A DNA stretch of 46,758 bases from Candidatus Jorgensenbacteria bacterium (GCA_011050075.1 DRGK01000003.1:1-46758); one strand, 5' to 3'; positions 26,283-44,516 are shown, counted from the first letter of the stretch. Notes: generated from the sequence alone by a model not told the origin. Numbers and translations: made by a program.

Positions 26283-26283
26283 C

Positions 26284-26460: not shown

Positions 26461-26462
26461 CT

Positions 26463-27134: not shown

Positions 27135-27139
27135 ATAAC

Positions 27140-28885
27140 ATGAAGGAGCTAAGAAAACATGATTTTAATGATCCTATATCGATCAGAGAGACACTAAACT
27201 CTATTAGTACACGGCGGTATATTTTGCCTGCAATTCAGCGCGAGTTTATTTGGAGCACCGATCAAATCATCTGTTTATTCGAATCTATTATGGATAGACT
27301 CATAATAGGTTCGTTTTTGTTTTGGACAACAAATGATGATACGCTACAAAATTTTCATTTTTATCATTTTATTGAAAATTATCATAAAAAAGACAATAGG
27401 CATAATCAGCGCGCTGATGTCACTGGAGAAAAAAATTTAGTAGCGGTTCTTGATGGTCAACAACGATTAACCGCCTTGTATATTGGTTTAAAAGGGTCAT
27501 ACGCCGAAAAAATCAAACATAAGCGACGAAATAACCCGGGTGCTTATCCTGTCAAAAAGTTATACCTTAACTTATTGGACGAAGGAGCAAAGGAATCTTC
27601 TTACGAGTTCGCCTTCTTAGGGCAGCGAGAGATGACCGACAACGCCTCTCAAAAAGCTTATTGGTTTCGAGTTGGAGATATTTTAAACTTTGATAATAAG
27701 GAAGATATAAAACAATATTTGATTGAAAGAAACCTTTTTGATAATAAGTTTGCTCGTCAGGCACTGCAACGATTATGGGAAGCCGTTAACGAAGAAAAAT
27801 ACATTCATTATTTTTTGGAATCGTCCGATGATATTGAAAGGGTCCTTAAATTATTTATACGAGTAAATAGCGCTGGCACGGATCTGACTTATTCTGATAT
27901 GTTGCTTTCCGTAGCCACGGCGCAATGGAAAGGAGATGCTCGTGAAGAAATAACGCAATTCGTTGATAGTATAAATGATATTAAAGATGGATTTGATTTT
28001 AAAAAAGATTTTGTTTTAAAAAGCGCTGCAACATTAGCGGATCTCGACGTGGCGTTCCGAGTTAAAAACTTTAATAGAGAAAATGTAGAAAAAATAGAAA
28101 GCGAGTGGAGTGATATAAAATACTCTGTAGAGTTGGCAATACGTCTTATTGCTAGCTTTGGGTACTGTGAGGAAAATCTTCCTTCTGCTAACGCAGTCAT
28201 TCCAATAGCATACTACTTGAAGAAAATAGGGCATCCCGAAAGATTTATAGACTCAGGACATTTTGAAGAAGAACGGAAGCGCATTAAAAAATGGTTCACC
28301 CTTACTCTCTTAAAGAGGGTATTTAGCGGCCAGTCCGATGCTACACTTAGCTCTATTAGAAAAATATTGCAAGAAAGCGAAGAAACTTTTCCTCTTGAGA
28401 AGATAATTGAGGAGTTCAGGGGTACTAATAAAGGTCTCGAAATTACTGGGCAGGAGTTGGAGAGGATTCTGGAAACAAAGTATGGAAATGCCCTATCTTT
28501 TTCGATTCTTTCTTTAGTTTATCCGTATCTTGACTTAAGAAATAATAAATTTCACAAAGATCATATTTTTCCAAAAAAGTTTTTTAAAAAAGGAGATTTA
28601 TGGAAACTGAGATTTTCTGACGAAGATGTTGAGTTTTATATGGAAAATTATGACAAAATTGCTAACCTACAATTATTGCTTGGACCTGTGAATAACGAAA
28701 AAGGTGGTAAAGATTTTCAGGAGTGGCTTGAGGATTATAATTCTGGCGACCAAAAGAAAAAAGAGCAATTTAAGCGCGATCATCTCATTCCGCTAGATAC
28801 AGATTTAAGTTTCGAAAACTTTAGAGATTTTTTTGGAAAGCGGAGAAAACTTGTTTTTGAAAAAATATTCTCCATTCTTAATTAA
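27140..28885 (+). CDS. GmrSD-like (DUF262 + HNH/DUF1524) modification-dependent restriction protein
   Basis: PAIQREFIW, DGQQRLT and FIRVNSAG (DUF262); DHIFPK and NLQLL...N..K (HNH-like). Confidence 0.85.
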   Translation: MKELRKHDFNDPISIRETLNSISTRRYILPAIQREFIWSTDQIICLFESIMDRLIIGSFLFWTTNDDTLQNFHFYHFIENYHKKDNRHNQRADVTGEKNLVAVLDGQQRLTALYIGLKGSYAEKIKHKRRNNPGAYPVKKLYLNLLDEGAKESSYEFAFLGQREMTDNASQKAYWFRVGDILNFDNKEDIKQYLIERNLFDNKFARQALQRLWEAVNEEKYIHYFLESSDDIERVLKLFIRVNSAGTDLTYSDMLLSVATAQWKGDAREEITQFVDSINDIKDGFDFKKDFVLKSAATLADLDVAFRVKNFNRENVEKIESEWSDIKYSVELAIRLIASFGYCEENLPSANAVIPIAYYLKKIGHPERFIDSGHFEEERKRIKKWFTLTLLKRVFSGQSDATLSSIRKILQESEETFPLEKIIEEFRGTNKGLEITGQELERILETKYGNALSFSILSLVYPYLDLRNNKFHKDHIFPKKFFKKGDLWKLRFSDEDVEFYMENYDKIANLQLLLGPVNNEKGGKDFQEWLEDYNSGDQKKKEQFKRDHLIPLDTDLSFENFRDFFGKRRKLVFEKIFSILN

Positions 28886-28895
28886 GCCAAAAGTC

Positions 28896-30446
28896 ATGAG
28901 TGCTAATATAAAAAATTTAGAAAATAGATTGTGGGAGGCGGCGGATCATATGCGCGCCAATTCTCCGTTGCGTCTTAATGAATTCGCTGAGCCGGTTTTG
29001 GGTTTGATTTTTCTCAAATTTGCAGGCGTAAAACATTCGAAAACCGAAAAAGAGTTAGCCGAAAAGAGAAAAAATAAAGCTAAAAAACTTGGTGGTGCTT
29101 CGGTTTCGCGTGAGCGGCCAGTTTCTTCCGCGGATTATCATGCGCGCGGCACACTCTTTATTCCCGAAAAAGCTCGGTTTTCATATCTTATAGAACTACC
29201 GGAGGGAACGGATATGGGGAGAGCTGTAAATGATGCAATGAAAGGAATCGAAGCCGAAAATAAAGAGCTTGCCGGCATTCTCCCTAAGACATTTCAAAAG
29301 CTGGACAATCGATCCATCATTACGCTTCTCAAAAACTTTAATCAGATTCCAGACGACATTGAAGGGGACGCGTTCGGTAAAATTTATGAATACTTCCTTG
29401 GTAAGTTTGCGCTTGCGGATGGCACTCGCGGAGGCGAGTTTTTCACACCGACAAGCATTGTTAAACTTATCGTGGAAATTATCGAGCCGTATCAAGGCAG
29501 GATTTATGACCCTGCCTGCGGTTCCGGCGGAATGTTTGTGCAGTCGCACGAATTCGTAAAACGGCATCTTGAAAATGGGCAAAAGACAAGAGCTTCGCGT
29601 GAGATCGCTATTTATGGACAAGAAAAAACAGATCAAACTGTTCGCATCGCAAAAATGAACCTTGCAATCCACGGTCTTTCAGGAGATATCCGCGAAGGGA
29701 ATACCTATTATGAGGATAGCCATAAGAGTATTGGAAAATTTGACTTCACTATGGCTAATCCTCCTTTTAATGTGAAAGGAATTGATAAGGAACGTATTAA
29801 GGACGATCCACGGTTTTCGTACGGTATACCCAGAGCGGATAACGGTAATTATCTTTGGATTCAAATCTTTTTAAATTCGCTCAATGAAAAAGGGCGCACA
29901 GGATTTGTTATGTCAAACGCGGCTGGCGACGCCGGTCATAGTGAAAAAGAAATTCGCCAAAAGCTCATTGAAGATGGTTTTGTAGATGTAATGATCGCAG
30001 TGGGTCCGAATATGTTTTATAATGTTGCGCTCTCGGTAACGCTTTGGTTTTTGGATAGGGGTAAGAAGAGGACAAACCGTAAGAACAAGATTCTTTTTAT
30101 TGACGCACGCAATATTTATACGCAGATTGACCGCGCCCATCGCGACTGGACCGACGAGCAGATAGAGCAGATTACAAGCATTGTGAGGAGCTACCGTAGT
30201 GAGAACGGAAAGAAGTACAAAGACATAAAAGGCCTATGCAAGGTAGCGACAATTGATGAAGTAAAGAAGTCCGGCTATTCACTCAACCCCGGCCGATATA
30301 TTGGCGTTGCTGACAATGGAAATGGAGACGACGGTAATTTTGGAGAGAAAGTTAAAAATCTTCACAGCGAATTTAAAGATCTGACTGACGAGGCGCATAA
30401 ATTAGAAAAGAAGGTTTTTGAGAATTTAAAGAAGTTGGATTTTTAA
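28896..30446 (+). CDS. hsdM: Type I RM methyltransferase subunit
   Basis: LWEAADHMR, GEFFTP, YDPACGSGGM and NPPF motifs. Start is ATG 28896. Confidence 0.95.
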   Translation: MSANIKNLENRLWEAADHMRANSPLRLNEFAEPVLGLIFLKFAGVKHSKTEKELAEKRKNKAKKLGGASVSRERPVSSADYHARGTLFIPEKARFSYLIELPEGTDMGRAVNDAMKGIEAENKELAGILPKTFQKLDNRSIITLLKNFNQIPDDIEGDAFGKIYEYFLGKFALADGTRGGEFFTPTSIVKLIVEIIEPYQGRIYDPACGSGGMFVQSHEFVKRHLENGQKTRASREIAIYGQEKTDQTVRIAKMNLAIHGLSGDIREGNTYYEDSHKSIGKFDFTMANPPFNVKGIDKERIKDDPRFSYGIPRADNGNYLWIQIFLNSLNEKGRTGFVMSNAAGDAGHSEKEIRQKLIEDGFVDVMIAVGPNMFYNVALSVTLWFLDRGKKRTNRKNKILFIDARNIYTQIDRAHRDWTDEQIEQITSIVRSYRSENGKKYKDIKGLCKVATIDEVKKSGYSLNPGRYIGVADNGNGDDGNFGEKVKNLHSEFKDLTDEAHKLEKKVFENLKKLDF

Positions 30447-30448
30447 TT

Positions 30449-30892
30449 ATGGATTATCTAAAGCGACAATTTAAATTATGGAAATTTGTCCAAATCTTAA
30501 AGGAAATTTTGAATGATTTAACCCTGGCAACTTATAAACTGCAGCGCCGGTCTTTTTATACGAGAATTAAGGATTATTATTTTTCTAGAGAAAATCCTCT
30601 TGAAGATAAAGAAAATAAAATGACTTTCCCTGTCGCCACAAAGCAATTTAAAGACGCCATTCCTAATGGACATAACCTGGACTCAATGAAACGCAACCTC
30701 GACTTTTTACAAAGAGAATTTGGAGATTATTTTGATCAACTTGTACAAGAGGGTGTGTTAGTGTCGGATAATGACTATCCACCGAGTTATTCCTTGAATC
30801 ATAATTCTCCAAAAGTGTATTGGGTTTTAGGCGTAATGAGTACAGCTGCTTTAATCTGGGGTATTGTGAAAATTTTTGTAAGTACAGAATAA
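30449..30892 (+). CDS. Hypothetical 147-aa protein with a C-terminal TM helix
   Basis: Starts 2 nt after the hsdM stop; TAATG overlap with hsdS; hydrophobic tail VYWVLGVMSTAALIWGIVKIF. Confidence 0.7.
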   Translation: MDYLKRQFKLWKFVQILKEILNDLTLATYKLQRRSFYTRIKDYYFSRENPLEDKENKMTFPVATKQFKDAIPNGHNLDSMKRNLDFLQREFGDYFDQLVQEGVLVSDNDYPPSYSLNHNSPKVYWVLGVMSTAALIWGIVKIFVSTE

Positions 30893-32136
30893 TGCCAAAA
30901 ACAAAATCACAACCGGAAAATTGGCGGAGGGTAAGGTTGGGAGAAGTTATTTTTATCAACCCTGATTCTATTGGTAAAGATTTTTCTTTCCAACAGATTT
31001 TGTATACAGATATATCCTCCGTGGGGGAAGGAACTGCAGAGGATCCGGTAGAGTTACATCTTTCCGAAGCCCCTAGCCGTGCTCGTAGATTGATTAAGAG
31101 TGAAGATACGATTTTATCAACAGTTCGTCCAAATCGTCGCTCATTTCTATACATTAAAAATCCCGAGAAAAATCGTTTAGTTTCTACTGGTTTTGCCGTG
31201 CTTCGAGCTAGTGATCAGATTGATTCAAGGTTTTTGTATTATTTCATTTCGAATCAATCATTTACGGACTACTTATCATTACACGCAAAAGGAGCCACTT
31301 ATCCGGCTGTTGACGCAGATATAATTACTGGCGCTGATATTTCTCTTCCGGAATTAAATGAACAAAAAAAGATTAGCTATGTTCTCTCAACCTACGACAA
31401 TCTTATAGAAAATAACACGAAGCGGATTAAGATTTTGGAAAAAATGGCGCAGGCGATGTATAAGGAGTGGTTTGTATACTTCCGTTTTCCCGGCCATGAA
31501 AAAGTAAAAATGGTTGATAGCAAAACGGATTTAGGCGAGATTCCGGAAGGGTGGGAAGTGAAAAAGCTACCGGAAGTTTTTGATTTTCTTGAGGGTCCGG
31601 GTATTAGAAATTGGCAATATACCCCTACCGGCTGTCCATTTATAAATATTCGGCTTATTCAAAATAATGACATAAATATAAACTCAGCAAACTTTATTTC
31701 CGAGGAAGAGGCGAATGGGAAATACAAACACTTTCAACTGCAAGAACGAGATATGGTTGTATCAACATCGGGAACACTTGGCCGATCTGCGATTGTCAGA
31801 AAAGAACACTTGCCGCTTATACTCAATACATCGGTGATAAGATTTAGGCCGATAGATGGGCGGAGCTATGCTTTTATGTACCAATTTTTAAACGCAGATT
31901 ATTTTCAAAACAAGATATTAAGTATGGCTTCTGGAAGCGCGCAGCCAAATTTTGGCCCTATGCATTTAAAACAGATCGAATTACTTGTACCAAGTCGGAA
32001 TGTATTGAATGCATTTAATAATTTAGTTGGTCCAATATATGGCGGAATGATAGTTTATTTTGCGGAGAATCAAAGATTACGCCAAGCCCGAGATTTGCTT
32101 TTGCCAAAATTAGTAGGTGGAGAAATTAGAATATAG
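30892..32136 (+). CDS. hsdS: Type I RM specificity subunit
   Basis: Two TRDs; LPELNEQKKI, YKEWFVYFRFPG, LGEIPEGW, RDLLLPKL..GEI. Confidence 0.93.
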   Translation: MPKTKSQPENWRRVRLGEVIFINPDSIGKDFSFQQILYTDISSVGEGTAEDPVELHLSEAPSRARRLIKSEDTILSTVRPNRRSFLYIKNPEKNRLVSTGFAVLRASDQIDSRFLYYFISNQSFTDYLSLHAKGATYPAVDADIITGADISLPELNEQKKISYVLSTYDNLIENNTKRIKILEKMAQAMYKEWFVYFRFPGHEKVKMVDSKTDLGEIPEGWEVKKLPEVFDFLEGPGIRNWQYTPTGCPFINIRLIQNNDININSANFISEEEANGKYKHFQLQERDMVVSTSGTLGRSAIVRKEHLPLILNTSVIRFRPIDGRSYAFMYQFLNADYFQNKILSMASGSAQPNFGPMHLKQIELLVPSRNVLNAFNNLVGPIYGGMIVYFAENQRLRQARDLLLPKLVGGEIRI

Positions 32137-32141
32137 TTTTT

Positions 32142-33494
32142 ATGGATAACGAATATTATATCAAATATATCGAGTCTAACTTATACAAAGTAAGTGCATT
32201 TATTGCCGGTATTGTTTTTATCCTCGTGTTGTCTGCTAGTATTGATTCGTGGTTAGAGAAGTTAATTATAAATACACAAATAAGATTTTCTATATACGGT
32301 GCGACTCTTCTTATTTGGACCTGTTTTTGGCTATTTTATAAATATAGATTGCCAAGAAATAAAAAAGGTAAGGTTGGTATTGTTGTGGCTATCCACGCAG
32401 AGACAAACAACGAAGAAATCAGGCTAAAAAATGATTTTATTTCAAAACTAAAAGAGAATATTAATAAAGAGAAATGCGGCGAAGTTATAAATATTATCGT
32501 TCTGAAAAATCATTTTTCGGAGAAACTCGACGATATAGGCAAGGGTTTAAGATTACACAAAAATATAAAGGGACATTTTTATGTTTATGGCCAAGTGAAA
32601 AGAAGAAGTGACGGCGAGAAGAAATACTTTCTAAAACTAGAGGGGTTGGTTGCACATCGCCCTATTAATATCCGCACCCAAGACTTTTTGAAGAAGGAGT
32701 TCGTAAGCATCCTACCGAAACAGATATCGTTTTTTGAAACTTTTGAGTTTAAGGGTTTTGAATTTACTGCTGATATTGTTTATCTTGCGGCACGATACAT
32801 CACAGGAATCGCTGCTTATTTATCGGGGGATCCGATTTTAGCTCATGAATTTCATTCTAATCTTCAGGGAGAATTTAATAAATTCCAGCCACTCCCTCCC
32901 CACTTACAGGTGATAAAGAATAAAATACCCGCACTATTATCTGACGAAGAATTAATTATTGCCCGGCATTATTATTTCAGAAATGAAGCTGGAAACTTAA
33001 AAGAATGGCTTGATAAATCTTTAAAATCTAATCCGAATAATTACGGTGGATGGGTGCTCAAGGCAATAGTAGATTTTCTGCCGACGCTTGACAACAATCC
33101 GGACACTGCTCTGGAAAGCATCAAGAGGGCTCGGAGGTATGCCAGCGCTACTCATGAATGGAGATATAGCCGAGCGTTTTTGTATTTCTGGGTAGAAAAT
33201 TATATAGAAGCTCTTCGTGATTGCGAGAATCTTAAAAACAAATCTTATCATAGTGAAGACATTACTATTAAAGAGGTGGAAGATTTTAATCTACAATTGC
33301 TAAAAGAAAATCCTGGTAAAATCCAGTTATATTTTTGGCTTGGTTACATTAACCTTATCAAAAAGAGAAATTTACCACTGGCTTATAAATACTTTAGTAA
33401 ATTTGAAGAAAAAGCAGATCAAACAATGGATTTACTAAAACAAAAGTCAAACGTTTATCTCTCGCAGATAAAAAGTGAGATGAAATTAAAGTAA
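32142..33494 (+). CDS. Hypothetical membrane protein with 2 N-terminal TMs and TPR-like C-terminal helices
   Basis: 450-aa AT-rich ORF with 5-nt and 7-nt gaps to hsdS and hsdR; NPxN/YFWLGYI-type TPR-like repeats. Confidence 0.72.
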   Translation: MDNEYYIKYIESNLYKVSAFIAGIVFILVLSASIDSWLEKLIINTQIRFSIYGATLLIWTCFWLFYKYRLPRNKKGKVGIVVAIHAETNNEEIRLKNDFISKLKENINKEKCGEVINIIVLKNHFSEKLDDIGKGLRLHKNIKGHFYVYGQVKRRSDGEKKYFLKLEGLVAHRPINIRTQDFLKKEFVSILPKQISFFETFEFKGFEFTADIVYLAARYITGIAAYLSGDPILAHEFHSNLQGEFNKFQPLPPHLQVIKNKIPALLSDEELIIARHYYFRNEAGNLKEWLDKSLKSNPNNYGGWVLKAIVDFLPTLDNNPDTALESIKRARRYASATHEWRYSRAFLYFWVENYIEALRDCENLKNKSYHSEDITIKEVEDFNLQLLKENPGKIQLYFWLGYINLIKKRNLPLAYKYFSKFEEKADQTMDLLKQKSNVYLSQIKSEMKLK

Positions 33495-33501
33495 GATTTT
33501 C

Positions 33502-36500
33502 ATGAACCCATTTTCGGAAGACAAGTTAATTGAGCAAACTGCCGTCAAGATTTTTGGCGGGCTTTGGGGCGCCGAAAATTTTGCCAATGCATATTCAGGC
33601 GAAATGGACGTAGAATTTGGGCGTGAGAATCCGGGAGAAGTGGTGCTGATGAATTATCTCAAAATTGCCTTGGTGAAACTCAATCCTGATGTATCTACCG
33701 AAGCGTTGAATCTTGCGATTGACGAGATTATCAAAGACCGCTCGGCAATGAGTATGGTGAATGCAAACCACGAGGTATGGCAACTGCTTAAAGATGGCGT
33801 AAAGGTTGAGACGGAAAATGAAAAAGGTGAACAGCAAACTGAGACGGTAAAAGTTATTGATTTTGAAAATCCGAAAGAAAATCACTTTATGCTTGTTTCC
33901 CAGTTTTGGATAACAGGCGAGCTGCATAAACGCCGCCCCGATCTGATCGGATTTGTGAATGGTATCCCGCTTGTATTGGTGGAACTGAAGGCATCACACA
34001 AAAATCTTCGTAATGCCTACAGCCAGAATATCCGGGATTACAAAGACACGATTCCACAGCTCTTTTGGTATAACGCCTTCATTATTATTTCCAACGGCAT
34101 TGAAAGCAAAGTTGGTACTATTACTAGCGCGTACGAACATTTCAACGAGTGGAAGAAAATAGATGATGAAAAAGAAGTTGGAAAAGTGAGCTTGGAAACG
34201 GTAATTAAAGGCACCTGCGAGCCGACGCGGCTATTGGATATTGTTGAAAATTTTATTCTTTTTGATGACTCCCGCGGCGAGCGCACTAAAGCGATTTCTC
34301 GATATTTTCAATATTTTGGAGTGAACCGCGCCTTTGAACAAGTGCAAAATCGAGATAAAAATAAGGGCCGGCTTGGTGTTTTTTGGCACACACAAGGATC
34401 CGGCAAATCATATTCAATGGTCTTTTTGTCTCAAAAAGTGTTCCGCAAATTAACCGGGAACTTCACTTTTGTCGTGGTTACAGACCGCAAAGAGCTTGAT
34501 AGGCAGATATACAAGACATTCGCCGCTTGTGGCGCAGTGTATGAGGACGAAGTGCATGCCGATTCTGTAGAGCATCTTCAGCAGTTGCTTAAAGAAGATC
34601 ACCGCCATGTTTTTACGCTTATCCATAAATTTGCCGAGCCGAAAGAGCTATCTAACAGAAATAATGTGATTGTAATGGCTGACGAAGCGCATCGTACGCA
34701 ATATGACCGCATGGCGTCCAATATGCGCATTGCCCTACCAAAAGCGTCATTTATCGGTTTTACCGGTACGCCCTTAATGGTTGGTGGAGAAGAGAAAACT
34801 CGAGAAGCTTTCGGTGATTATATCTCAACATACAACTTCGCACAGTCAGTAAAGGACGGAGCTACAGTTCCACTTTATTACGAAAATCGTGTTCCAAAAC
34901 TTAAGAACGTCAATCCTGATATTCAGAAAGATTTGGAGCGGGTAATGAATTTTTACGATCTTGCGCCGGAAGAAGAGGAAAAACTGGAACAAGAATTTTC
35001 AACTTTTTACCACCTGATCACTCGCGAAGATCGCTTGAATAAAGTCGCGGAGGATATCGTCACACACTTCACTGCTCGGGGGTATAACGGAAAAGCAATG
35101 GTTGTTTCTATTGATAAGAAAACGACCATTCGAATGCATGCCAAAGTCAAAGAACAAATGCAACGCCATTTGGCAAAGTTGAACATCACTCTATCTAAAG
35201 CAGCAGACGAACATGAGAAAGAAAAGATTCAACAAACAATAGAGCAATACGAAGGAATTGACATGGCAGTAGTGGTAAGCCAAGGCCAGAATGAAATCGC
35301 CGACATGGAAGAGTTTGAAATTGATATGCGGCCGCTTAGAGCTCGTATGCAAAATGAAGATTTGGAAACGAAATTTAAAGACCCAGACAGCAACCTGCGC
35401 ATTGTCTTTGTTTGCGCAATGTGGATTACCGGTTTTGATGTTCTTAATCTTTCAACGTTATATCTTGATAAACCGCTTAAGAACCACACGCTCATGCAGA
35501 CCATCGCCCGCGCCAATCGAGTATATCCGGGCAAAACAAACGGCCTTATTGTTGACTACATCGGCGTATTTAGAAACATTCAAAGAGCTCTCGCGATTTA
35601 CGCTACTCCGGAAAGCGGCGCGTCAATTGACGACATTATTAAAGAAAAAGAAGAACTTGTTGAGTTGTTGGTTTCAACTACCACACAGACGAGAGGATTC
35701 TTAAAAAAGCTTGATCTTGATGTTGATGAATTACTGAAAGCAAAGGACACAGAAAAGATACGCCTTGTTGATGTATTTACGAATCGTATTTTGCAGGATG
35801 AACAGACGAAAATGAGATATCTAGATCTTGCATCAGATGCTTATCAACTTTATAAAGCCGTACTACCCGCGCCCAAAGCGGAAGATTATTACCAAGAAGT
35901 TACGGCTTTTAAAGTTATTGCCTCTCGCATCAAAGAGGTTATTGAGGAAGAGGCCGATGTTAGTCAAGTGAAAAAAGACCTTGAAGACTTACTTGATCGT
36001 TCTATCAAGGCGGGTGAATTTGTCATTAAAGCGCCAAAACTAAAAGATCTAAGTCAGATTGATTTTGAGGCGTTGCGAAAGTTTTTTGATGATACGGATA
36101 ATAAAAATATTGCCGCTGAAAGTTTAAGCGCCGAACTTGAAGAAAAAATCAAAGAAATGGCGCGGAAAAATAAACTGCGCAAACATTTTCTTGATCGCCT
36201 TAATTCATTGATTCGAGAATATAATTCAGGGTCTCGCGACCTCGACTCATTTTTTGACGAGCTTCTCGTTCTAGCAAAAGAATTAAGCGAGGAGGACGTA
36301 CGAGCGATAAAAGAAAATCTCACGGAGGAGGAGTTGGCGATCTTTGACCTTCTCGTGAAAGAAAATCTTAACCCTAATGAAGTGGAGAAAGTGAAAAAAG
36401 TCGCGCATGAGCTGATAACCAAACTGAAAAAGGAAAAGTTTGTCTTGGATTGGAAGCGCAAAGAAGAAACACGCGCTGATGTGAAAATAACAATTCGTGA

Positions 36501-36627
36501 TACATTGTACGACAACTTACCCGAGCCGGCATACTCTAAAAAGGACTGCGAAGACCGAACTCAAAAGGTTTATTTCCATATCTACGACAGTTATGTGGAT
36601 GCGGAAATAAATGTTTATACGCGATAA
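33502..36627 (+). CDS. hsdR: Type I RM restriction subunit
   Basis: RPDLIGFVNGIPLVLVELK nuclease motif, HTQGSGKS, DEAHR, FTGTP, QTIARANR. Confidence 0.96.
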   Translation: MNPFSEDKLIEQTAVKIFGGLWGAENFANAYSGEMDVEFGRENPGEVVLMNYLKIALVKLNPDVSTEALNLAIDEIIKDRSAMSMVNANHEVWQLLKDGVKVETENEKGEQQTETVKVIDFENPKENHFMLVSQFWITGELHKRRPDLIGFVNGIPLVLVELKASHKNLRNAYSQNIRDYKDTIPQLFWYNAFIIISNGIESKVGTITSAYEHFNEWKKIDDEKEVGKVSLETVIKGTCEPTRLLDIVENFILFDDSRGERTKAISRYFQYFGVNRAFEQVQNRDKNKGRLGVFWHTQGSGKSYSMVFLSQKVFRKLTGNFTFVVVTDRKELDRQIYKTFAACGAVYEDEVHADSVEHLQQLLKEDHRHVFTLIHKFAEPKELSNRNNVIVMADEAHRTQYDRMASNMRIALPKASFIGFTGTPLMVGGEEKTREAFGDYISTYNFAQSVKDGATVPLYYENRVPKLKNVNPDIQKDLERVMNFYDLAPEEEEKLEQEFSTFYHLITREDRLNKVAEDIVTHFTARGYNGKAMVVSIDKKTTIRMHAKVKEQMQRHLAKLNITLSKAADEHEKEKIQQTIEQYEGIDMAVVVSQGQNEIADMEEFEIDMRPLRARMQNEDLETKFKDPDSNLRIVFVCAMWITGFDVLNLSTLYLDKPLKNHTLMQTIARANRVYPGKTNGLIVDYIGVFRNIQRALAIYATPESGASIDDIIKEKEELVELLVSTTTQTRGFLKKLDLDVDELLKAKDTEKIRLVDVFTNRILQDEQTKMRYLDLASDAYQLYKAVLPAPKAEDYYQEVTAFKVIASRIKEVIEEEADVSQVKKDLEDLLDRSIKAGEFVIKAPKLKDLSQIDFEALRKFFDDTDNKNIAAESLSAELEEKIKEMARKNKLRKHFLDRLNSLIREYNSGSRDLDSFFDELLVLAKELSEEDVRAIKENLTEEELAIFDLLVKENLNPNEVEKVKKVAHELITKLKKEKFVLDWKRKEETRADVKITIRDTLYDNLPEPAYSKKDCEDRTQKVYFHIYDSYVDAEINVYTR

Positions 36628-36628
36628 C

Positions 36629-36670
36629 ACCCCGGAGGAGATCAAAATTATTGAAGGTGAGAGAAATTGA
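36629..36670 (+). pseudogene. Orphan C-terminal fragment resembling a Type IIG/TaqI-C-type RM protein (TPEEIKIIEGERN*)
   Basis: Matches the typical LYGLTxEEIxIIE terminus; begins 1 nt after the hsdR stop. Confidence 0.6.
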
Positions 36671-36787
36671 TAAAGAAGGAATGAAAAAGTACTCCGTGGT
36701 GGTCTAAAAATAGGCTCTAACGTAGTCCAGCTGCTGCCATCGAAAATAATCTTTACAGTCTTAATTCGACGAGATACACTGAACTGT

Positions 36788-37444
36788 ATGAAGAGGAAAT
36801 TGCTCATATATCTCTTGTTTTTCTCTGCTATAACACTAGTCGGAATTGTTTTATTCAGACTCTTTCAGCTTGAGCAGATAATATTTATTAAAGGATTTAC
36901 GCTTGGCGAAACAATTACCGTTGTAATCTTAATCATTGGTCTGTTGATAGGAATGGAAGAAGCAGAAAATGCTTTAAGGCCGTATGTTGATGTTGGTGTT
37001 ATATTCCACAAAGGAGTCAAGAAAACTCGCTTTCAATTTCTCCAAAAATCTAAGATACCAGCTCTTGTTTGGTTAGATATAAGATTGAGAATAAATGGGC
37101 GTGATATAGATTCAAATGAAAGAAAATGGTGGTTGGAAGATAAGCGATTATGGGGTGTAAAACCATGGGTTGTTCGATTTGATAATCGTGCAACATCTGC
37201 TTATGCTCTAAAAAAGGTAACAAACGCTATTATGGAAACAGAAAGCGGTGAGGCTGATTTATTTATTAAAATTTCCGTTGCCCCCATTTTTAGAAAAAAG
37301 GCGCGTTTTTATTACGAAGAAAAACATTATGAATTTAATAAAGACAAAGACAATCCTAGGTGGATAGAGACTAGTTGGGGTATAGAAGATAGATTACATC
37401 CTGGATTTAAGTTTTCAAAAGAAGACAGTTCTCACGATGAGTAG
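36788..37444 (+). CDS. Hypothetical membrane protein (2 N-terminal TMs + soluble domain)
   Basis: 218-aa ORF; TACACT -10 lies 7 nt before the ATG. Confidence 0.72.
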   Translation: MKRKLLIYLLFFSAITLVGIVLFRLFQLEQIIFIKGFTLGETITVVILIIGLLIGMEEAENALRPYVDVGVIFHKGVKKTRFQFLQKSKIPALVWLDIRLRINGRDIDSNERKWWLEDKRLWGVKPWVVRFDNRATSAYALKKVTNAIMETESGEADLFIKISVAPIFRKKARFYYEEKHYEFNKDKDNPRWIETSWGIEDRLHPGFKFSKEDSSHDE

Positions 37445-37493
37445 AAAATATACAAGTTCACTTGTACTCGACGACTTATTTGATAAAATAAAA

Positions 37494-37571
37494 CCAACAT
37501 CGTCCCATAGCCCCAGAAAAATAAACGGCTCAATCCCATTGAGCCGTTTATTTTCGCATTGTTGTGATATT
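37494..37571 (+). repeat. 78-bp direct repeat, copy A (contains a 16-bp-stem hairpin)
   Basis: 76/78 identical to 42642-42719; aaaataaacggctcaa-tccca-ttgagccgtttatttt. Confidence 0.95.
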
Positions 37572-37605
37572 ATTGGGATATAGAGACAAAATCGTCTGGC
37601 AACTA

Positions 37606-37629
37606 GTTCAAATCCCTGTCCGGCAGCCA
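37606..37629 (+). other. Isolated tRNA 3' fragment (T-loop, acceptor strand, CCA; tRNA-Gln-like), att remnant
   Basis: GTTCAAAT-CCCTG-TCCGGCA-G-CCA, with no 5' half upstream. Confidence 0.6.
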
Positions 37630-37663
37630 GTTTGATATAGGTTAGGATTCCGAAGAGTATATT

Positions 37664-38275
37664 ATGAAAAACTTTTTAAACACAAAAACAATCATAGGAA
37701 GCCTAGTAGTAGGTCTCATAGGAAGTGCGTTATGGGAAAATCTATTTAGAGACCTCCTAAATCTTGGAGGAAAAACGTTGTTAACTATATCTACTCTTGG
37801 ACTCGATAAGTACAAGGACAATATATATATGAGTATTGCCCAAGGTTTTTATGAGCGAGTGAGTATCCAAATACTGTCCCTAGGGTTAGGGGTACTTTTT
37901 GGAATTGCACTTGGGACTATAATAATCACATTCAAGATTAATAAAAAAGATGAGAAATCCAAGGATTTAAAAATAAAGAAATGGTTAAGAGGTCACAAAC
38001 GTTTTGTTAAAATCGGATTTCTTATCTATACGATTTTTGTAATGGGTATCACAGTTCTTAGTCTTGCTGAAATCACTTATATAAACAAATCAATAGCTTA
38101 TTATAGACAACTTGAGAGTATTGCGGCTCCATATATTACGTCCGACCAGGAAAAGATATTCAACTCTAGATTTTCCCAGATTAAGAATCGAGAAGGTTAT
38201 ACTAAATTGATCAATGAACTTTCTGTGATTATTGACGAAGCAGGACAGACGGTGGTGCCAGCATTCATTTTCTAA
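37664..38275 (+). CDS. Hypothetical membrane protein (about 3 TMs)
   Basis: 203-aa AT-rich ORF with three hydrophobic segments. Confidence 0.72.
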   Translation: MKNFLNTKTIIGSLVVGLIGSALWENLFRDLLNLGGKTLLTISTLGLDKYKDNIYMSIAQGFYERVSIQILSLGLGVLFGIALGTIIITFKINKKDEKSKDLKIKKWLRGHKRFVKIGFLIYTIFVMGITVLSLAEITYINKSIAYYRQLESIAAPYITSDQEKIFNSRFSQIKNREGYTKLINELSVIIDEAGQTVVPAFIF

Positions 38276-38329
38276 CAGTTCAAATGAATCAAGGAACCGC
38301 TTACGACCCTTTGATTAGAGACATAGAAT

Positions 38330-38349
38330 GGTTCCAACATCATCCCATA
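38330..38349 (+). repeat. Short copy of the repeat core ggttccaacatcrtcccata
   Basis: 19/20 identical to 42638-42657. Confidence 0.85.
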
Positions 38350-38450
38350 AGCCCAATCAGCTTGAGATGGGTTCAGAGTCCGAGAAGCATAATTTTGGTC
38401 CTTGGCACTTGGTGCTCGCATCTTCCTCGTGGCAAGTGTAATATAAATCC

Positions 38451-40433
38451 ATGTATATAGAAAAGGTCAGAATATCAAATTTTCGCTGTTTCGGTCCTAC
38501 GCCGGAAACGATTGCTTTTGATCCTAGTATTACAGCTTTTATTGGAACCAACGGCACTGGGAAAACGGCAGTTATGCAGGCACTTTTACGTCTTTTTGGC
38601 GTGACGTATGAACAACGTCGTCTCAGGCGGCAGGATTTTCACGTACCTCTTGATGAGACAACTTCTCCGAGTGAGCGGATGCTTTTTATTGAAGTAGTTC
38701 TTGCTTTTCCTGAGTTAGATGCAAACGATCCTGTAGCAAAGGCCACGGTCCCTGAGTTTTTCAACCACATGGCGACAGACGATCGTGGTCATCTTAAATG
38801 CAGGCTGCATTTGAAATCAACGTGGACTGATGACGGCTCGATAGAGGGGGCAACTGAGCAAAGGCTGTGGGCGGTTACGACACTATCAGATGATTTTGAC
38901 GAAGAAAAAGATTGCCATGAAGTGAGTATATCGAACCGTAGTCAAGTTCAAATAATTTATGTACCTGCTGTCCGAGACGGTATCTCACAAGTGACTGCGT
39001 TTCTGAAGGGGCGTCTCTGGAAAGCCATCACCTGGTCAAATGAACTACGGGAGATGCTTGGTGATACAGGAGAAATACTCAACAAAAAGTTTCGTTCCGA
39101 GCCAGGAGTCGCCTCGATCACTGCGACGCTTAAGACACGCTGGCAGGAAATCCATTTTGCTGGTACAGACGCCGAACCGCTCTTTAGACCGATCGATTTG
39201 CAACTCGAAGAATTCATAAAAAAGGTTGATGTAGTGTTTCGCTCTGATGAGGCGGGAAAAGATCGAAATATGGATGACCTTAGTGATGGTCAGAGGTCGT
39301 TGTTCCATCTCGCAATGACTGCTGCAACATTGGATGTTGAAGACAAAATAGTATCCGGATCTGTAGGAGATGGCTTTCAAACCGATGGGATTGTATTGCC
39401 AGCGCTTACGGTAATTGCAGTTGAAGAACCTGAGAACAATCTAGCCCCGTTTTACCTGTCAAGAATCATTCGTCAAATCAAAGACGTTACAAAAAGTTCT
39501 CGTGCACAAGCATTGATCGCCAGTCACTCATCGAGTATTTTGGCACGAATTGATCCTTCAATGATTCGACATTTTCAGCTCTTGCGAAAAGACAGGACAG
39601 CCAAAATCAAAGGAATCCTAATTCCGGATGGTGAAGATGATGCAGCAAAATTTATCCGGGAAGCTGTACGAACTTATCCTGAGATATACTTTGCACGATT
39701 TGTAATACTTGGAGAGGGAAGCTCAGAGGAGGTCATAATTCCTCGTTTGGCAGAAGCAATGAATATGCATATCGACAGATCCTTCGTTGCAGTCGTACCT
39801 TTAGGCGGACGTCACGTTAACCACTTGTGGCGATTGCTTTCTGATTTGAAAATTCCCTATGCGACGTTATTGGATCTCGACACCGGACGTGCTGGTGGTG
39901 GTTGGGGAAGGATAAAAACAGTATGTTCTGAGTTGATAAAAAATGGCGCTGATCCTAAAGCAATTTTTGGTGATGAATTATTGCCCGCTGGAGCCGATGC
40001 AAGCCTCGACTCTTTTGTAGGGAGGAAGATTGATGAATCCTTGTCCGAGTGGGTCAAGAACTTGAGAAAATTTAATGTCTTTTTCTGTGCGCCACTAGAT
40101 ATTGATTGGACCATGCTTTCTGCTTTCCCAGAGGCATACCAACATCTTGAAACGGGCAATAGAGGACCCGTTATGACGATTGATGGCAAAATGGCTGTTC
40201 TCGGTGACGCTGGCGATCCATTACCATACGGCGCTGACGATGAAGATATGTTTCGTTGGTATCGCTATTTATTTCTCGGACGTAGCAAACCGAATGCACA
40301 CTTGCGTATACTAAGCCGCTTAGATAACAAAGCGATTACGGCGAACGCACCAGAAGAACTTATAGCATTGCTCGAACACGTAAATGCGAATATTTTCCCA
40401 AAAATTGCTGAAGTTAAAACACCGTCCGCATGA
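38451..40433 (+). CDS. OLD-family ABC-ATPase/TOPRIM nuclease (GajA-like)
   Basis: GTNGTGKT, LSDGQRS, VEEPENNL, ASHS, TOPRIM GEGSSE and DLD. Confidence 0.9.
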   Translation: MYIEKVRISNFRCFGPTPETIAFDPSITAFIGTNGTGKTAVMQALLRLFGVTYEQRRLRRQDFHVPLDETTSPSERMLFIEVVLAFPELDANDPVAKATVPEFFNHMATDDRGHLKCRLHLKSTWTDDGSIEGATEQRLWAVTTLSDDFDEEKDCHEVSISNRSQVQIIYVPAVRDGISQVTAFLKGRLWKAITWSNELREMLGDTGEILNKKFRSEPGVASITATLKTRWQEIHFAGTDAEPLFRPIDLQLEEFIKKVDVVFRSDEAGKDRNMDDLSDGQRSLFHLAMTAATLDVEDKIVSGSVGDGFQTDGIVLPALTVIAVEEPENNLAPFYLSRIIRQIKDVTKSSRAQALIASHSSSILARIDPSMIRHFQLLRKDRTAKIKGILIPDGEDDAAKFIREAVRTYPEIYFARFVILGEGSSEEVIIPRLAEAMNMHIDRSFVAVVPLGGRHVNHLWRLLSDLKIPYATLLDLDTGRAGGGWGRIKTVCSELIKNGADPKAIFGDELLPAGADASLDSFVGRKIDESLSEWVKNLRKFNVFFCAPLDIDWTMLSAFPEAYQHLETGNRGPVMTIDGKMAVLGDAGDPLPYGADDEDMFRWYRYLFLGRSKPNAHLRILSRLDNKAITANAPEELIALLEHVNANIFPKIAEVKTPSA

Positions 40434-42328
40434 AATATACCTTGTCTGAAGCATGGCGACCGCAGGGGGTCGACAATCTTGAGGATGCAGCATGGGCCGC
40501 CCTTCGAGAGACGGGTTGCACGAGTATTATAGCGGGGCCGGGCGCCGGAAAAACGGAATTTCTTGCACAACGTGCAGCCTATTTGTTGCAGACTGGGGTT
40601 TGCCGCAAACCATCTCGAATTTTGGCAATATCTTTCAAAAAGGATGCTGCTCAAAATCTAGCAGATCGTGTACGAAAAAGATGTTCACCAGAGCTAGCGT
40701 CTCGGTTTGAATCTTTGACATTTGATGCGCTTACAAAAAGCCTTGTAGACCGATTCCTCACAGTTCTACCTCAAGAATTGCAACCGACAAAACCATATAA
40801 CGTGATATTTCCCACAAAGCCGGAGGTCCAAAGCTTTTTGGCGACGGCGCGGACTATAGCTGATAGTGCGTGGCATACTGATATCGCTCGTGTTGCTCCG
40901 TCTGGTTTTGAGTCAAATTATATCGGAGCCAAGAAGTTGGGCGTAGAATTTACGGATGCGACAAATGCAGGCGACTTTCTAGTTCATCTGTGGTTGAAAC
41001 AACACTTATCGAGACGACCCTCAGACGTATCATTCGTTATGTTTAACCGCCTTGCTGAACTACTGTTACGCGTAAGTCCTGAAATATTGCGATCACTACG
41101 CCTAACGTACCCATTTGTATTTGTCGATGAGTTTCAAGATACAACTTATGCTCAATATGATTTCCTACTTTCTGCTTTCGGAGGCGGTCAAACAATCGTT
41201 ACTGCGGTCGGAGATAATAAACAGAAAATTATGGGATGGGCCGGCGCTTTACCCGATTCGTTCCAGCAGTTTCGATCGGACTTTGCCGCTCTAGAGATAC
41301 CATTGCGATCAAATTACCGATCCTCTCCAGATCTTGTAAGGATCCAGCAAATCGTAGCACGTGCAATAGACGCGGGGGTAGCTGAAGCTGAAGCGTGCAC
41401 AGAGCAGGCAATTGAAGGGGAAGTGGCGCAAATTTGGAATTTTCCAAATAACATCACTGAAGCACAACAGATCGCTTCTTGGTTAGTTGGTGATATACAA
41501 CGTCGTGGAACATCTACGCGTGATTATGCACTACTTGTGAAGCAAACCACAAATCTCTTTGAGGATCAGCTATCCGTAGCATTGAACAAGAAAAACCTTC
41601 AGTTACGTAATGAGGATAAGCGTATAGGGAAAATAACCCTTCAGGATCTCTTAGTGGATGAATTGGTTCAAATTTCTATAGCTATTCTAAAAGTGGCAAC
41701 CCTACCTCGTGCACCCGAAGCTTGGAGTATTGCGTCTCAGGCAGTTTTACGTTTGCGCGGAATAGACCCTGATAATGATGTTGGGTGTCAAAAAACTGAA
41801 AGACAGTTGAAAGCATTTATTGATCGACTACGCGTATTTACACAAAAGACAGTTCCACACCCGAAATATGTTGGAGTAATACTTGATAATCTCATTAAGT
41901 TTCTCGATCCTCCGGCGCTTTCGCGTGCATACCTGCAATACAGTACAGGAGATAACCTCGCAATTGCAATTGAAGGACTACGTTTACACCTCACCGATTC
42001 CACAAGAAGCACATCAACGTGGACAGCTTGCCTCGATGCTTTTGAAGGTGAAAATTGTATTTCCCTGATGACGGTGCATAAAAGCAAGGGGCTCGAATAC
42101 GACACAATCATATTTGTTGGCTTAGACGATAAAACATGGTGGAGTCACACTAAGGGTAATACTGAAGGAACCGCTATATTTTTTGTTGCACTTTCCAGAG
42201 CAAAACAGCGCATTGTTTTCACATTTTGTTCCACACGTGGTCCGAGGGATTTAGTTGATGATCTGTACACACTCTTGAGAGAGGCTGGTGTTCCGGAAGT
42301 TGAATATAGTATTACACCAGATACATAA
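40430..42328 (+). CDS. UvrD/PcrA-like SF1 helicase (GajB-like)
   Basis: AGPGAGKT, VDEFQD, VGD..Q.I, NYRS, TVHKSKGLEYD and VALSRA; ATGA overlap with the OLD gene. Confidence 0.9.
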   Translation: MKYTLSEAWRPQGVDNLEDAAWAALRETGCTSIIAGPGAGKTEFLAQRAAYLLQTGVCRKPSRILAISFKKDAAQNLADRVRKRCSPELASRFESLTFDALTKSLVDRFLTVLPQELQPTKPYNVIFPTKPEVQSFLATARTIADSAWHTDIARVAPSGFESNYIGAKKLGVEFTDATNAGDFLVHLWLKQHLSRRPSDVSFVMFNRLAELLLRVSPEILRSLRLTYPFVFVDEFQDTTYAQYDFLLSAFGGGQTIVTAVGDNKQKIMGWAGALPDSFQQFRSDFAALEIPLRSNYRSSPDLVRIQQIVARAIDAGVAEAEACTEQAIEGEVAQIWNFPNNITEAQQIASWLVGDIQRRGTSTRDYALLVKQTTNLFEDQLSVALNKKNLQLRNEDKRIGKITLQDLLVDELVQISIAILKVATLPRAPEAWSIASQAVLRLRGIDPDNDVGCQKTERQLKAFIDRLRVFTQKTVPHPKYVGVILDNLIKFLDPPALSRAYLQYSTGDNLAIAIEGLRLHLTDSTRSTSTWTACLDAFEGENCISLMTVHKSKGLEYDTIIFVGLDDKTWWSHTKGNTEGTAIFFVALSRAKQRIVFTFCSTRGPRDLVDDLYTLLREAGVPEVEYSITPDT

Positions 42329-42351
42329 CGTTCTAAGATGTTTAAGATTGA

Positions 42352-42582
42352 ATGGTTACCGTTCCTTTAGTAACCAATGAATTGTTATCAAAATATTTTA
42401 CTTATCAAAAACCAATTCGTAAGACACTAGATCCAAAATATAAAGTTTTAACCAAAGATGGTTTGGTAATAAGGTTGCAGAAAGATCATAAAAGATTATT
42501 GGCAGAATCAGAAGAGCGTATTAGAAAAGCAAAAGAAAAGGTTTCCGAGGAGCATAAAAATCAAGAACAAAAAATAAGCTAA
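42352..42582 (+). CDS. Small hypothetical protein or gene fragment (76 aa, coiled-coil tail)
   Basis: AT-rich ORF; no recognised motif. Confidence 0.4.
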   Translation: MVTVPLVTNELLSKYFTYQKPIRKTLDPKYKVLTKDGLVIRLQKDHKRLLAESEERIRKAKEKVSEEHKNQEQKIS

Positions 42583-42641
42583 AAATCCTTATAGGGCTTG
42601 GTGAGGGATTATCCGAGACCGAGGAGTCAAGCATTGCGGTT

Positions 42642-42719
42642 CCAACATCGTCCCATAGCCCCAGCAAAATAAACGGCTCAACCCCATTGAGCCGTTTATT
42701 TTCGCATTGTTGTGATATT
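42642..42719 (+). repeat. 78-bp direct repeat, copy B
   Basis: 76/78 identical to 37494-37571. Confidence 0.95.
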
Positions 42720-42727
42720 GTGGAGAG

Positions 42728-42766
42728 ATGAATTCAGAAGTAAAGCAGTGTAAGAACTGTAAACAA
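42728..42766 (+). pseudogene. N-terminal remnant of a Cys-rich paralogue (MNSEVKQCKNCKQ)
   Basis: Resembles MTNEKKI-CQNCKR of the 3353 gene; TGaTATTGT -10 lies 6 nt before the ATG. Confidence 0.55.
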
Positions 42767-42818
42767 GTTAAAATCTTAAAGTTGATTTTGCTACGTGGCG
42801 TCAGTACACTGATGAATA

Positions 42819-44516
42819 ATGCCAACCGATGCAGAGCGTATCAAGCAGAAGCTTGATATCGTTGAATTTTTAAAATCCGCGATGACACTTTCCCCAGCGG
42901 GAAAAAACTTTAAGGGGTTATGTCCGTTCCACCAGGAAAAGAACCCTTCCTTTATGGTGTCTTCAGAGCGGCAAAGTTGGCATTGTTTTGGGTGCGGAGA
43001 AGGTGGAGACGTTATAAAATTTGCCATGCTGTATGAAAATCTGGATTTTCCCGAAGCATTGCGTGTATTAGCAGAGAAGGCAGGCATTGATATTGCGGTT
43101 ATGAACCAACGTGACCAACGTCAGTTTACGGTCTTGTACGATATTAACACGGAGGCTCAGAAGTCATTTGCTCATGCATTATGGAAAAATAATGCAGCGC
43201 TTGTATACTTGCGTGATAGAGGATTAAAGGATGAAACGATACGCGAGTTTGGTCTTGGTTTTTCTCCGGGTGGTGATGCGCTGGTGGTGCATCTAATTAA
43301 AAAAGGATATGCCATAGAGGATATACACAAAGCCGGCATTGCGTACCGTTACCGTGGACTCAATAAAGACAGATTTGATGGACGCATCGTATTTCCGATA
43401 ACGAACGATATTGGGAATGTAGTTGGCTTTACGGGACGCATTTTTAACAAGGAAGAAACCGATGAGGTGCCGAAGTACATGAATAGTCCTGAGACACTTA
43501 TTTTTATAAAATCAAAATTACTGTATGGGTTGCATAAGAGCAAGCCGGCTATTGTTAAATCACGGACCGTATTTTTAGTTGAGGGGCAGATGGATGTGCT
43601 TATGGTATGGCAGGCAGGTGTGCATAATGTGGTTGCAGTTTCCGGAACCGGCCTGACGGGGAAGCACCTCATGAAATTGCGTCGCATAGCGGACACGGTA
43701 ATAGTGAGCTTTGATAACGATGCATCAGGACTGAAAGCACTTGAGCGAAGTTTGGATATATTCAGTACCTTTGATTTTCATATCAAGGCAGCTTCACTTG
43801 GTACGTATAAAGATCCTGCAGAGATGGCAGAAGCAGATCCACAGGCGCTAAAAAAAGCTATTACAGACGCCCAACCGGTATTTACTTATCTGTTTGAAAC
43901 GTACTTCCGCACGCAGAATATTACGGACATCATGGAGCGTAAAAATAAGGTGCGTCATTTATTAGGTAAAATTCAAAATCTTGCCAGTACTATTGAGCGG
44001 GATATGTGGATCAAGGAACTATCACGGTATTCCGGTATTGCAGAAACAGCACTTACTGAGGAGCTTGGCGAGATGAAAAGTATGAAGCGTGAGCATATGA
44101 CTGGTGACAGAGAGACACTTGAACAGCTTCCACCCCGAGAACGTATAGAACACATAGTGCGTCGGCTGCTCCTCGTCGCATGTACCGTAAAAGAGCTTTG
44201 GCAGATATTAGAGAAACATGAAGCCTGGTTTCCGGAGCAGTATCGTGAGATACTCAAGAATCCAGAAGACGAAAAGACAAACTTATTGGAGATGGAATCA
44301 AGTTACCTAACCGGAGATATTGATCCCGAACTATTAAAGACAGAGTTTCAGGAATTAATGTGTCAGCTCGAAATAGAGTTTCTGAAAAAGAAACAATCCG
44401 TACTAAAAGAGAAGATGCGCACATTATTAGAAGACGATACAGAGGTGGAAGTGTTAGCAGAAAAGTTCTATAACATTGCAGGTAAAATTGATACACTAAT
44501 AAAGAAAAATACGTAA
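42819..44516 (+). CDS. dnaG: DNA primase
   Basis: [34 protein letters not shown]. Confidence 0.96.

Follow-up and report, generated by a model that had tools for sequence, protein, structure and literature searches.

The repeat-bounded row upstream of dnaG

The DNA analysed here is a 46,758-nt stretch from Candidatus Jorgensenbacteria bacterium (GCA_011050075.1 DRGK01000003.1:1-46758), called the window below; positions count from its first nucleotide. The source genome is of the type seen in the candidate phyla radiation (CPR), 526 kb in 18 contigs (C1, C4, C7 and C17 among them) with a completeness of 90.85%. Our subject is a row of genes upstream of dnaG in which cargo, including a Gabija defence system, is closed by copies of a short direct repeat, referred to as the core (Table 1). 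We consider it rather probable that these cores are att scars, left in a stack by serine-integrase elements that target tRNA genes and the integrase of which is now gone.

Table 1. Features of the row and of the surrounding island, in window positions
Feature	Position	Strand	Remarks
Possible decayed variant core	36713..36730	+	86 nt past the hsdR stop; 15/18 to variant arm
218-aa membrane-type ORF (cassette 1)	36788..37444	+	no Pfam, PADLOC or NCBIfam match
Core copy, first 4 bases replaced (AAAA for GGTT)	37490..37516	+	29.6 bits
Terminator-type hairpin (17-nt arms) and extended -10-like box, left copy of the 78-nt repeat	37518..37571	+	repeat search
tRNA-Gln(CTG) 3'-end fragment (T-loop to acceptor tail)	37605..37627	+	20/21 to own tRNA-Gln(CTG) on C4
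203-aa membrane-type ORF (cassette 2)	37664..38275	+	no family match, no named relatives
Core without hairpin module	38330..38355	+	55 nt past the stop of the 203-aa ORF; 34.6 bits
Gabija (cassette 3): gajA 38451-40433, gajB 40430-42328	38451..42328	+	PADLOC, Pfam
76-aa ORF after gajB	42352..42582	+	no family match (Pfam, PADLOC, NCBIfam)
Full core	42638..42664	+	56 nt past the stop of the 76-aa ORF; 41.5 bits
Terminator-type hairpin and extended -10-like box before dnaG, right copy of the 78-nt repeat	42666..42719	+	repeat search
fusA, left backbone gene	24059..26197	+	Pfam EF-G domains
Defence island, 16.6 kb, fusA to dnaG	26198..42818	+	Pfam, PADLOC, empty site in relative G026
dnaG, right backbone gene	42819..44516	+	Pfam

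An earlier, sequence-only reading of the window had described a 78-bp repeat with a hairpin and an extended -10 at 37494 and 42642, and a repeat search confirmed it. The direct repeat covers 37494-37581 and 42642-42729, 88 nt at 93% identity or 78 nt at 97% (76/78), and both copies of the 78-nt part contain a perfect hairpin with 16-17-nt arms and the extended -10-like box TGTGATATT. The cores claimed at 38330 and 42638 stand far above chance: a search with the pattern GGTTCCAACATCGTCCCATAG, allowing up to three mismatches, matched 42638 without mismatch and 38330 with two, where 100 shuffles gave an expectation of 0.00. A weight matrix trained on 73 copies from other genomes was then scanned over the whole genome. 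Four sites scored 29.6-41.5 bits, namely 42631, 38323 and 37483 in the window and 6867 on the minus strand of C7; the best score beyond these was 12.2 bits. The partial core reported at 37494 is thus among them, with AAAA in place of its first four bases GGTT. Less can be said for a further copy claimed at 36713, which was missed by the profile and scored below 8 bits in the matrix scan. It does share 15 of 18 bases with the arm of a variant core found at C4:36987, at C4:37724 and in the genome G064, where we estimate about 0.3 such matches genome-wide by chance. From its sequence it is a plausible decayed copy of the core, no more than that.

Elsewhere in the genome core and hairpin/promoter module are found apart. 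About 95 nt part the C7 core, the fourth canonical one, from the same module, and two copies of the module without a core lie on C17. Contig C4 holds a second mini-row (35220-37800) composed of a 567-aa open reading frame (ORF), the variant core 36987, a 222-aa ORF and the variant core 37724, each variant arm coming after a co-oriented ORF. The latter core is accompanied by a long hairpin and TATAAT, and the tails of both are of tRNA-Asn type. Right beside the C7 core, at the contig end (locus L004, 1-1816), there is an inverted copy of the opening 18 codons of a glycosyltransferase ORF, apparently a fold-back artefact of assembly.

Two separately assembled metagenome contigs (L080 and L081), possibly from the same sample, contain both junctions of the window with unique flanks at 99.8-99.9% identity. 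Assembled contigs of three runs (X1-X3) of one study break at the repeats and gave no evidence of excision. A lone joint among them, 'skips 5084', rests on a single contig with a short side of 30-37 nt; it is a hairpin/repeat ambiguity, since the same contig also 'goes back 58'.

The cargo between the cores is as the earlier reading had it: the 218-aa ORF, the 203-aa ORF, and an OLD-type and a UvrD-type gene followed by a 76-aa ORF. The OLD/UvrD pair is a full-length Gabija system. PADLOC profiles matched GajA with 801 bits (1-648) and GajB with 694.5 bits (2-625), the Pfam domains are AAA_15, AAA_21 and OLD-like TOPRIM in GajA and UvrD in GajB, and the two genes overlap by 4 nt. The description of the whole cargo as defence genes goes further than this, as the three small ORFs matched no family; the label is established for Gabija alone. 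A lead for the 218-aa ORF comes from its language-model look-alikes; one of them, at a score of 0.93, is the cluster SMODS-associating 2TM beta-strand-rich effector.

The core itself contains the direct repeat GTTCCA N5 GTYCCA, which has no inverted partner. Neither reading the core by eye nor the repeat search revealed inverted arms of the attC or dif type, as the earlier reading had stated, and the only inverted repeats near cores are terminator-type hairpins, the sequence of which differs between lineages. A tiny opposite-strand ORF starting in the core was considered and rejected; the window copies stop after 2 and 9 codons and the frame is not conserved.

The core in other genomes

The core is not private to this genome but forms a family in scattered CPR genomes. 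An exact search with a degenerate 21-mer listed 42 stretches of GTDB species-representative genomes with 43 distinct copies. By record title the carriers are almost all CPR (Saccharibacteria, Wolfe-, Moran-, Campbell- and Nealsonbacteria, Paceibacterota), and a few are short contigs under other names. Five short core-bearing contigs (L022, L036, L039, L026, L052) are binned as Methanosarcinales or Gammaproteobacteria, but they have the junction modules of Saccharibacteria contigs, so that mis-binning seems likely. With a profile, 84 copies were found in the collected loci. At up to three mismatches five genomes hold 1, 3, 9, 20 and 30 copies, and the reversed pattern as a control gave none. 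The core is nevertheless rare, being present at one mismatch or less in 4 of 401 sampled genomes of the phylum, our own counted. Its 21 bases are identical across CPR classes, and the comparison of these sequences points to horizontal spread among scattered lineages.

Outside this range the searches were negative. Two degenerate core patterns had no exact match in viral contigs, the 81-nt junction as a query found no match in plasmids and phages, and 60 related genomes contained no relative of the locus at the DNA level. A metagenome scan returned the organism itself, twice, together with another one that carries the module. In the literature search the core string occurred in no paper, and nothing pertinent was found on integrons, cassettes or tRNA islands in CPR bacteria or Saccharibacteria.

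These data bear on the simplest explanation of the window, according to which the 78-nt repeat is a mere local duplication of the terminator/promoter region of dnaG by one homologous insertion, and the short cores are incidental. The near identity of the copies, lineage-specific hairpin and -10 box included, would fit, as would the lack of another strain with different content. Yet this does not account for the core without module at 38330 or for the 95-nt insert before the module on C7, and it is weakened by the many other genomes where the core stands beside other hairpins. We regard it as very improbable.

All copies within a row have one orientation, and rows run to 30 cores. A co-oriented ORF ends just upstream of 69 of the 73 cores that have flanks, with a median distance of 41 nt from the stop codon, and for 68 a co-oriented ORF starts within 250 nt downstream. 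A stable hairpin follows the core in 58 cases, a count made without a control. Cores fall on both replichore-like halves and are oriented with the genes (at most 30 copies per genome). The distance to the stop codon also settles an earlier suggestion, that the cores encode the end of a gene product, GSNIVP*. This reading is coincidental; at the C7 copy, no ORF of at least 30 aa ends in that frame. One contig (L024/L035, merged) contains a tandem duplication of 6.4 kb of its core row, the copies being 99.3% identical.

The core is the exact point where conserved backbone meets variable cargo in other genomes. This is best seen in the comFC-pilM slot of three Saccharibacteria genomes, where the alignment is homologous from an A-run and the core on. 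Upstream the cargo differs: SPFH, GIY-YIG and PEP-utiliser genes in the first genome, a Panacea-type pair in the second, and an M3 peptidase with an amidohydrolase in the third. Of 93 homology-block ends, which are not mutually independent, 14 lie within 40 nt of a core; in 1000 random placements the mean was 3.0 and the maximum 9. Moreover, one M20 peptidase cassette is present in different rows of two genomes. The breakpoints, the block ends and this shared cassette support the earlier proposal of stacked att scars from repeated site-specific insertion.

Could the core instead act on the transcript, as a regulatory motif of the 3' untranslated region that precedes a terminator and was moved with its genes by homologous recombination after DNA uptake, with no site-specific enzyme involved? 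Its constant place between stop codon and hairpin, always co-oriented with the genes, suggests such a role, and so does the 78-nt repeat, which holds a lineage-specific terminator/promoter module that is core-free on C17. The competence gene comEC lies in the window as well. On the other hand, a regulatory motif does not predict that backbone homology begins at the first base of the core, nor does it explain why 21 bases should be identical across CPR classes and yet be present in so few genomes. No Rfam family matched: in the window tRNA-Gly alone reached the gathering score, and around three core copies nothing relevant appeared at E values up to 1. The relation to tRNA 3' ends and serine recombinases described below would be left without explanation too. 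This possibility appears improbable to us.

tRNA ends at the head of the rows

Core rows in other genomes start just downstream of a co-oriented tRNA-Gln gene, or after a tRNA-Gln-type 3'-end fragment that often stands behind a tRNA-Ser gene. Among rows having at least 2.2 kb of upstream flank, 11 of 20 have a co-oriented tRNA gene within 3 kb. A tRNA-Gln-type 3'-end pattern found ten sequences in 606 kb, nine of them in the same orientation as a row whose first core follows within 2.2 kb; in one genome (G062) all four rows are headed in this way. The window fragment at 37605 is among the nine. It is the only other copy of the 3' end of the tRNA-Gln(CTG) in its genome and fits the head pattern of core rows.

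Identical modules follow the tails of head fragments and of cores. Therefore both are interchangeable up to the tail CCCCAGC. They differ in their spacing: the start of GGTTC.AA and a shared dinucleotide (CA in the Gln types, GA in the Asn type) are 24 nt apart in cores but 19 nt apart in tRNA-type ends. Three independent tail contexts (Gln CCCCAGC, Asn-type GGAGC and Campbellbacteria Gln GCCAAC) agree in this, and in the window core 42638 has 24 nt and head fragment 37605 has 19 nt. The bases past the arm resemble the tail of the head tRNA in all three contexts, as would be expected of a hybrid site.

A difference of this kind is described for the sites of large serine recombinases (LSRs). 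According to Rutherford et al. 2013 (PMC3783163), the zinc-ribbon motif of an attP half-site occupies positions 16-24, whereas in attB it lies 5 bp closer to the centre. Likewise, the distal motif lies 5 bp farther out in the core than in the tRNA-type ends.

Both tRNA-Gln genes of the genome itself (C4 27600-27860 and C17 65450-65710) are followed by the same module of ~135 nt. A 35-nt piece of this module, as present downstream of tRNA-Gln(TTG), recurs between core and hairpin on C7 (27/35), with a score that none of 500 shuffles reached; the region downstream of tRNA-Gln(CTG) showed no similarity to the C7 core region.

Recombinases beside the cores

Two of the five other core-bearing genomes scanned have large serine recombinases. 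LSR elements with cores at their far end were found in two CPR genomes, G615 and G064. In the Campbellbacteria genome G615 a tRNA-Gln(CTG) gene (2259-2330) is followed by an LSR gene on the minus strand (2318-3805) with Resolvase, Recombinase and Zn_ribbon_recom domains. Further on lie a Rep-type gene and a SMODS gene accompanied by a membrane ORF, then a core at ~8170, a cyclodipeptide-synthase gene and another core at ~8936. The cargo of this element (L098 5908-8166), a SMODS-type nucleotidyltransferase followed by the membrane ORF, is a pair resembling CBASS, the cyclic oligonucleotide-based antiphage signalling system. In G064 the LSR gene, likewise on the minus strand (3141-4736), lies 1.3 kb past a tRNA-Gln gene, and its last codons overlap a tRNA-like end at 3131. 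A methylase-Mrr fusion comes next and, 4.6-7 kb on, the variant cores 9349, 9971 and 11691. In these two genomes the LSR elements measure ~6 kb, with the recombinase at one end and a core at the other.

Homologues of the G064 enzyme are present in 62 of 151 genomes of its order. At all 12 loci studied the LSR reading frame extends into the 3' end of a tRNA on the opposite strand: a tRNA gene called by ARAGORN in eight cases, a tRNA-like fragment in four. The link to serine recombinases anticipated by the earlier reading is therefore supported by these elements, not in the form proposed there. The cores were to be the 3' ends of recombinase genes, but it is the tRNA-side site that the recombinase gene overlaps with its end; this site is at the end of the element away from the cores, and the gene runs on the opposite strand.

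No serine recombinase (PF00239) was detected in the source genome at its present completeness. Its single PF00589 match is a Xer-like protein of 295 aa on C1, between rpsO/pnp-type genes. Each of the six core-bearing genomes, this one included, has exactly one tyrosine recombinase, which lies away from the rows. A tblastn search with the Xer-like protein in ~300 kb around cores of other genomes, a search of low sensitivity, found nothing.

Origin of the row

The observations behind our reading are the repeats with their distribution and orientation, the breakpoints at cores, the tRNA ends that head rows, the LSR elements of two genomes and the 24/19-nt spacing. Under this reading each core would represent the outer half-site, of attP type, of a family of small integrative elements found in CPR bacteria. 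An LSR, probably cutting at CA, would insert such an element into the 3' end of a tRNA-Gln gene, and a variant would use tRNA-Asn-type ends. In the inserted element the recombinase gene would lie at the tRNA side, its final codons overlapping the end of the tRNA on the opposite strand. At the far end the 24-nt arm (GGTTCCAACATCGTYCCATAGCCC) would be followed by the CA dinucleotide, a tail resembling that of a tRNA and, in most cases, a terminator. If such elements inserted repeatedly and then lost their recombinase and replication module, co-oriented rows could have arisen in which a complete or fragmentary tRNA-Gln 3' end stands at the head and cargo genes follow, each closed by a core.

The window row may be read in this way from its head fragment through the 203-aa ORF, core 38330, Gabija and the 76-aa ORF to core 42638 with the terminator and the promoter-like box of dnaG. 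Upstream of this row, the 218-aa ORF is closed by the truncated core 37490 with the same terminator/promoter module, the two modules making up the 78-nt repeat, and segment 37572-42719 may have entered by recombination within the 78-nt module. Because the genome has no serine recombinase of its own, the scars in the window could be fossils, or movable only by an enzyme supplied in trans. The integron-like platform mobilised in trans that had been suggested before is not supported, as there is no integron integrase and no attC-type repeat, and each unit apparently has its own promoter-like box. Tandem accretion of tRNA-targeting elements with subsequent decay fits the pattern better than an integron.

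Several observations weigh against this origin. Four of the six core-bearing genomes, among them those with 20 and 30 copies and our own, have no PF00239 protein; most rows would therefore be orphaned. Conversely, 10 of the 12 LSR loci have no core or other far-end site in the 1-8 kb examined, and a tRNA-Gln-targeting LSR in G543 has no core or far-end site within 47 kb. The two LSRs that do adjoin cores are mutually only 43% identical, and an LSR element could simply have landed at a tRNA heading an older row of another enzyme. In the window, core 37490 lacks its outer four bases and the core tails (CCCCAG) are unlike those of the genome's own tRNA-Gln genes (CCGGCAGC), so that the scars were not made on its present tRNA-Gln sequence. 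Inner junctions look like a P arm joined to a P'-type flank and not like single attP x attB products, and we know of no canonical serine integrase that yields such junctions by attP x attB alone. Finally, no second strain of the organism with other cargo was found in the 60 related genomes and the metagenome scan. Because of the core-less LSR loci, the core genomes without an LSR, the low identity, the inner junctions and the tails, another enzyme may act on the core.

This enzyme could belong to a separate, integron-like cassette system of CPR bacteria, or be the single Xer, with the LSR elements merely sharing the tRNA neighbourhood. The long rows in genomes without a serine recombinase, the tyrosine recombinase present once in each core-bearing genome and the predominance of LSR loci without nearby cores are what such a system would lead one to expect. 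However, the core has a direct repeat instead of the inverted arms needed by tyrosine recombinases or a folded attC. The tyrosine recombinase is not beside the rows and here, among rpsO/pnp, resembles a housekeeping Xer; and the 24/19 spacing and the tails that follow the tRNA type would be left unexplained. We therefore hold a separate system to be unlikely and prefer serine-integrase elements as the source of the cores.

An extended version of the serine-integrase reading is conceivable, although we find it doubtful. Several CPR classes might share plasmid-like integrative elements of ~6 kb (LSR, Rep and a defence module) at tRNA-Gln/Asn ends, and the cassettes left behind might stay recombination-competent and be shuffled by passing recombinases. 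The rows would then be an integron-like exchange platform on serine-integrase chemistry.

The surrounding island

Every gene described in the window is on the plus strand, in the order rpsL, rpsG, fusA, the island, dnaG, rpoD and alaS. In the relative G026, the DnaG of which is 52% identical, M50, rpsL, rpsG, fusA and dnaG are contiguous and the 92-nt spacer between fusA and dnaG holds only a plain terminator hairpin. The segment between the two genes is therefore an island of 16.6 kb. dnaG was found in 36 of the 37 family genomes searched, and seven further relatives examined have different genes upstream of it.

The left part of the island consists of an AbrB-like 58-aa ORF, RadC, a HEC-05/GmrSD-type protein and a type I restriction-modification system (Pfam, PADLOC), and the repeat-bounded part comes after. 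At the left edge (26230-26283) repeated palindromes of the TTTACGTA type with an operator-like look precede the AbrB-like ORF. The restriction-modification system comprises hsdM, hsdS and hsdR plus two ORFs inside the operon, 30449-30892 (147 aa) and 32142-33494 (450 aa), which match no family in Pfam, PADLOC or NCBIfam.

Outside the island, three large ORFs without Pfam families lie in 212-8442 amid housekeeping genes. At 6640-8442, in the same surroundings, there is a TrwB/VirD4-like coupling ATPase with a treble-clef zinc finger.

Significance and comparison with known systems

Gene gain and loss in CPR bacteria, whose genomes are tiny, are little understood. If our reading is correct, core rows explain the arrival of Gabija, CBASS-type genes and restriction enzymes in these genomes as well as the clustering of variable genes behind tRNA-Gln. 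It offers a concrete enzyme candidate and a spacing rule for the repeats at cassette junctions. The predicted pairs of enzyme and site are testable in Escherichia coli and might later aid genetics in cultivated Saccharibacteria; if the rows were indeed an exchange platform, they would supply natural, ready-made attP/attB pairs for CPR genetics.

Integrons and the clusters of attC sites lacking integron integrases (CALINs) consist of small co-oriented cassettes, each closed by a repeated site, with content that varies between genomes and sometimes no adjacent integrase. Core rows are similar to CALINs in that they are co-oriented, variable in content and in some cases without an adjacent integrase. 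Unlike integrons, they are without IntI, attI and folded attC sites with inverted R and L boxes, and their cassettes have promoter-like boxes and terminators of their own. They also differ from integrative mobile elements exploiting Xer (IMEX) and other users of Xer/dif, as there are no dif-like inverted arms round a short spacer but a direct repeat in up to 30 copies per genome.

Cis-mobilizable elements (CIMEs) of the Streptococcus ICESt1 type, as characterized in a review (PMC5704250), have lost their integration and transfer genes and kept the flanking att sites, and neighbours insert to form tandem arrays. The window cassettes similarly keep flanking cores and a head fragment while the integrase is gone. 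The CIME cases of that review, however, involve tyrosine integrases of integrative and conjugative or integrative and mobilizable elements, conjugation, and demonstrated mobilisation in cis or trans. The sites of the A118 and LI integrases, as treated in PMC3783163, share with the core and its tRNA-type counterpart a distal motif of ~9 bp that is 5 bp farther from the crossover in the attP type, and a non-palindromic central dinucleotide. Those phage systems have a single attL/attR pair, in contrast to rows of P-type sites and an attB that is a tRNA end overlapped by the integrase gene, known here from sequence alone.

The nearest described system is the ssrA island array of Dehalococcoides. 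McMurdie et al. 2011 (PMC3146451) describe islands arranged in tandem behind this small RNA gene, whose 3' end recurs as a direct repeat at the border of each island. Every repeat is immediately preceded by a conserved motif, an element-derived arm that cannot be aligned with ssrA itself. The integrase is a CcrB-like large serine recombinase, and some islands, which lack an integration module, were proposed to be cis-mobilizable. Core rows have the same traits, namely tandem units at the 3' end of an RNA gene, a putative element-derived arm, an LSR, units without an integrase and small genomes as hosts. They differ from the array of that account in their target, a tRNA-Gln or Asn-type 3' end, and in their units of 0.5-5 kb, often with one gene. 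Most genomes bearing rows are without any serine recombinase, the arm is identical across CPR classes, and the row in the window lies away from any complete tRNA gene.

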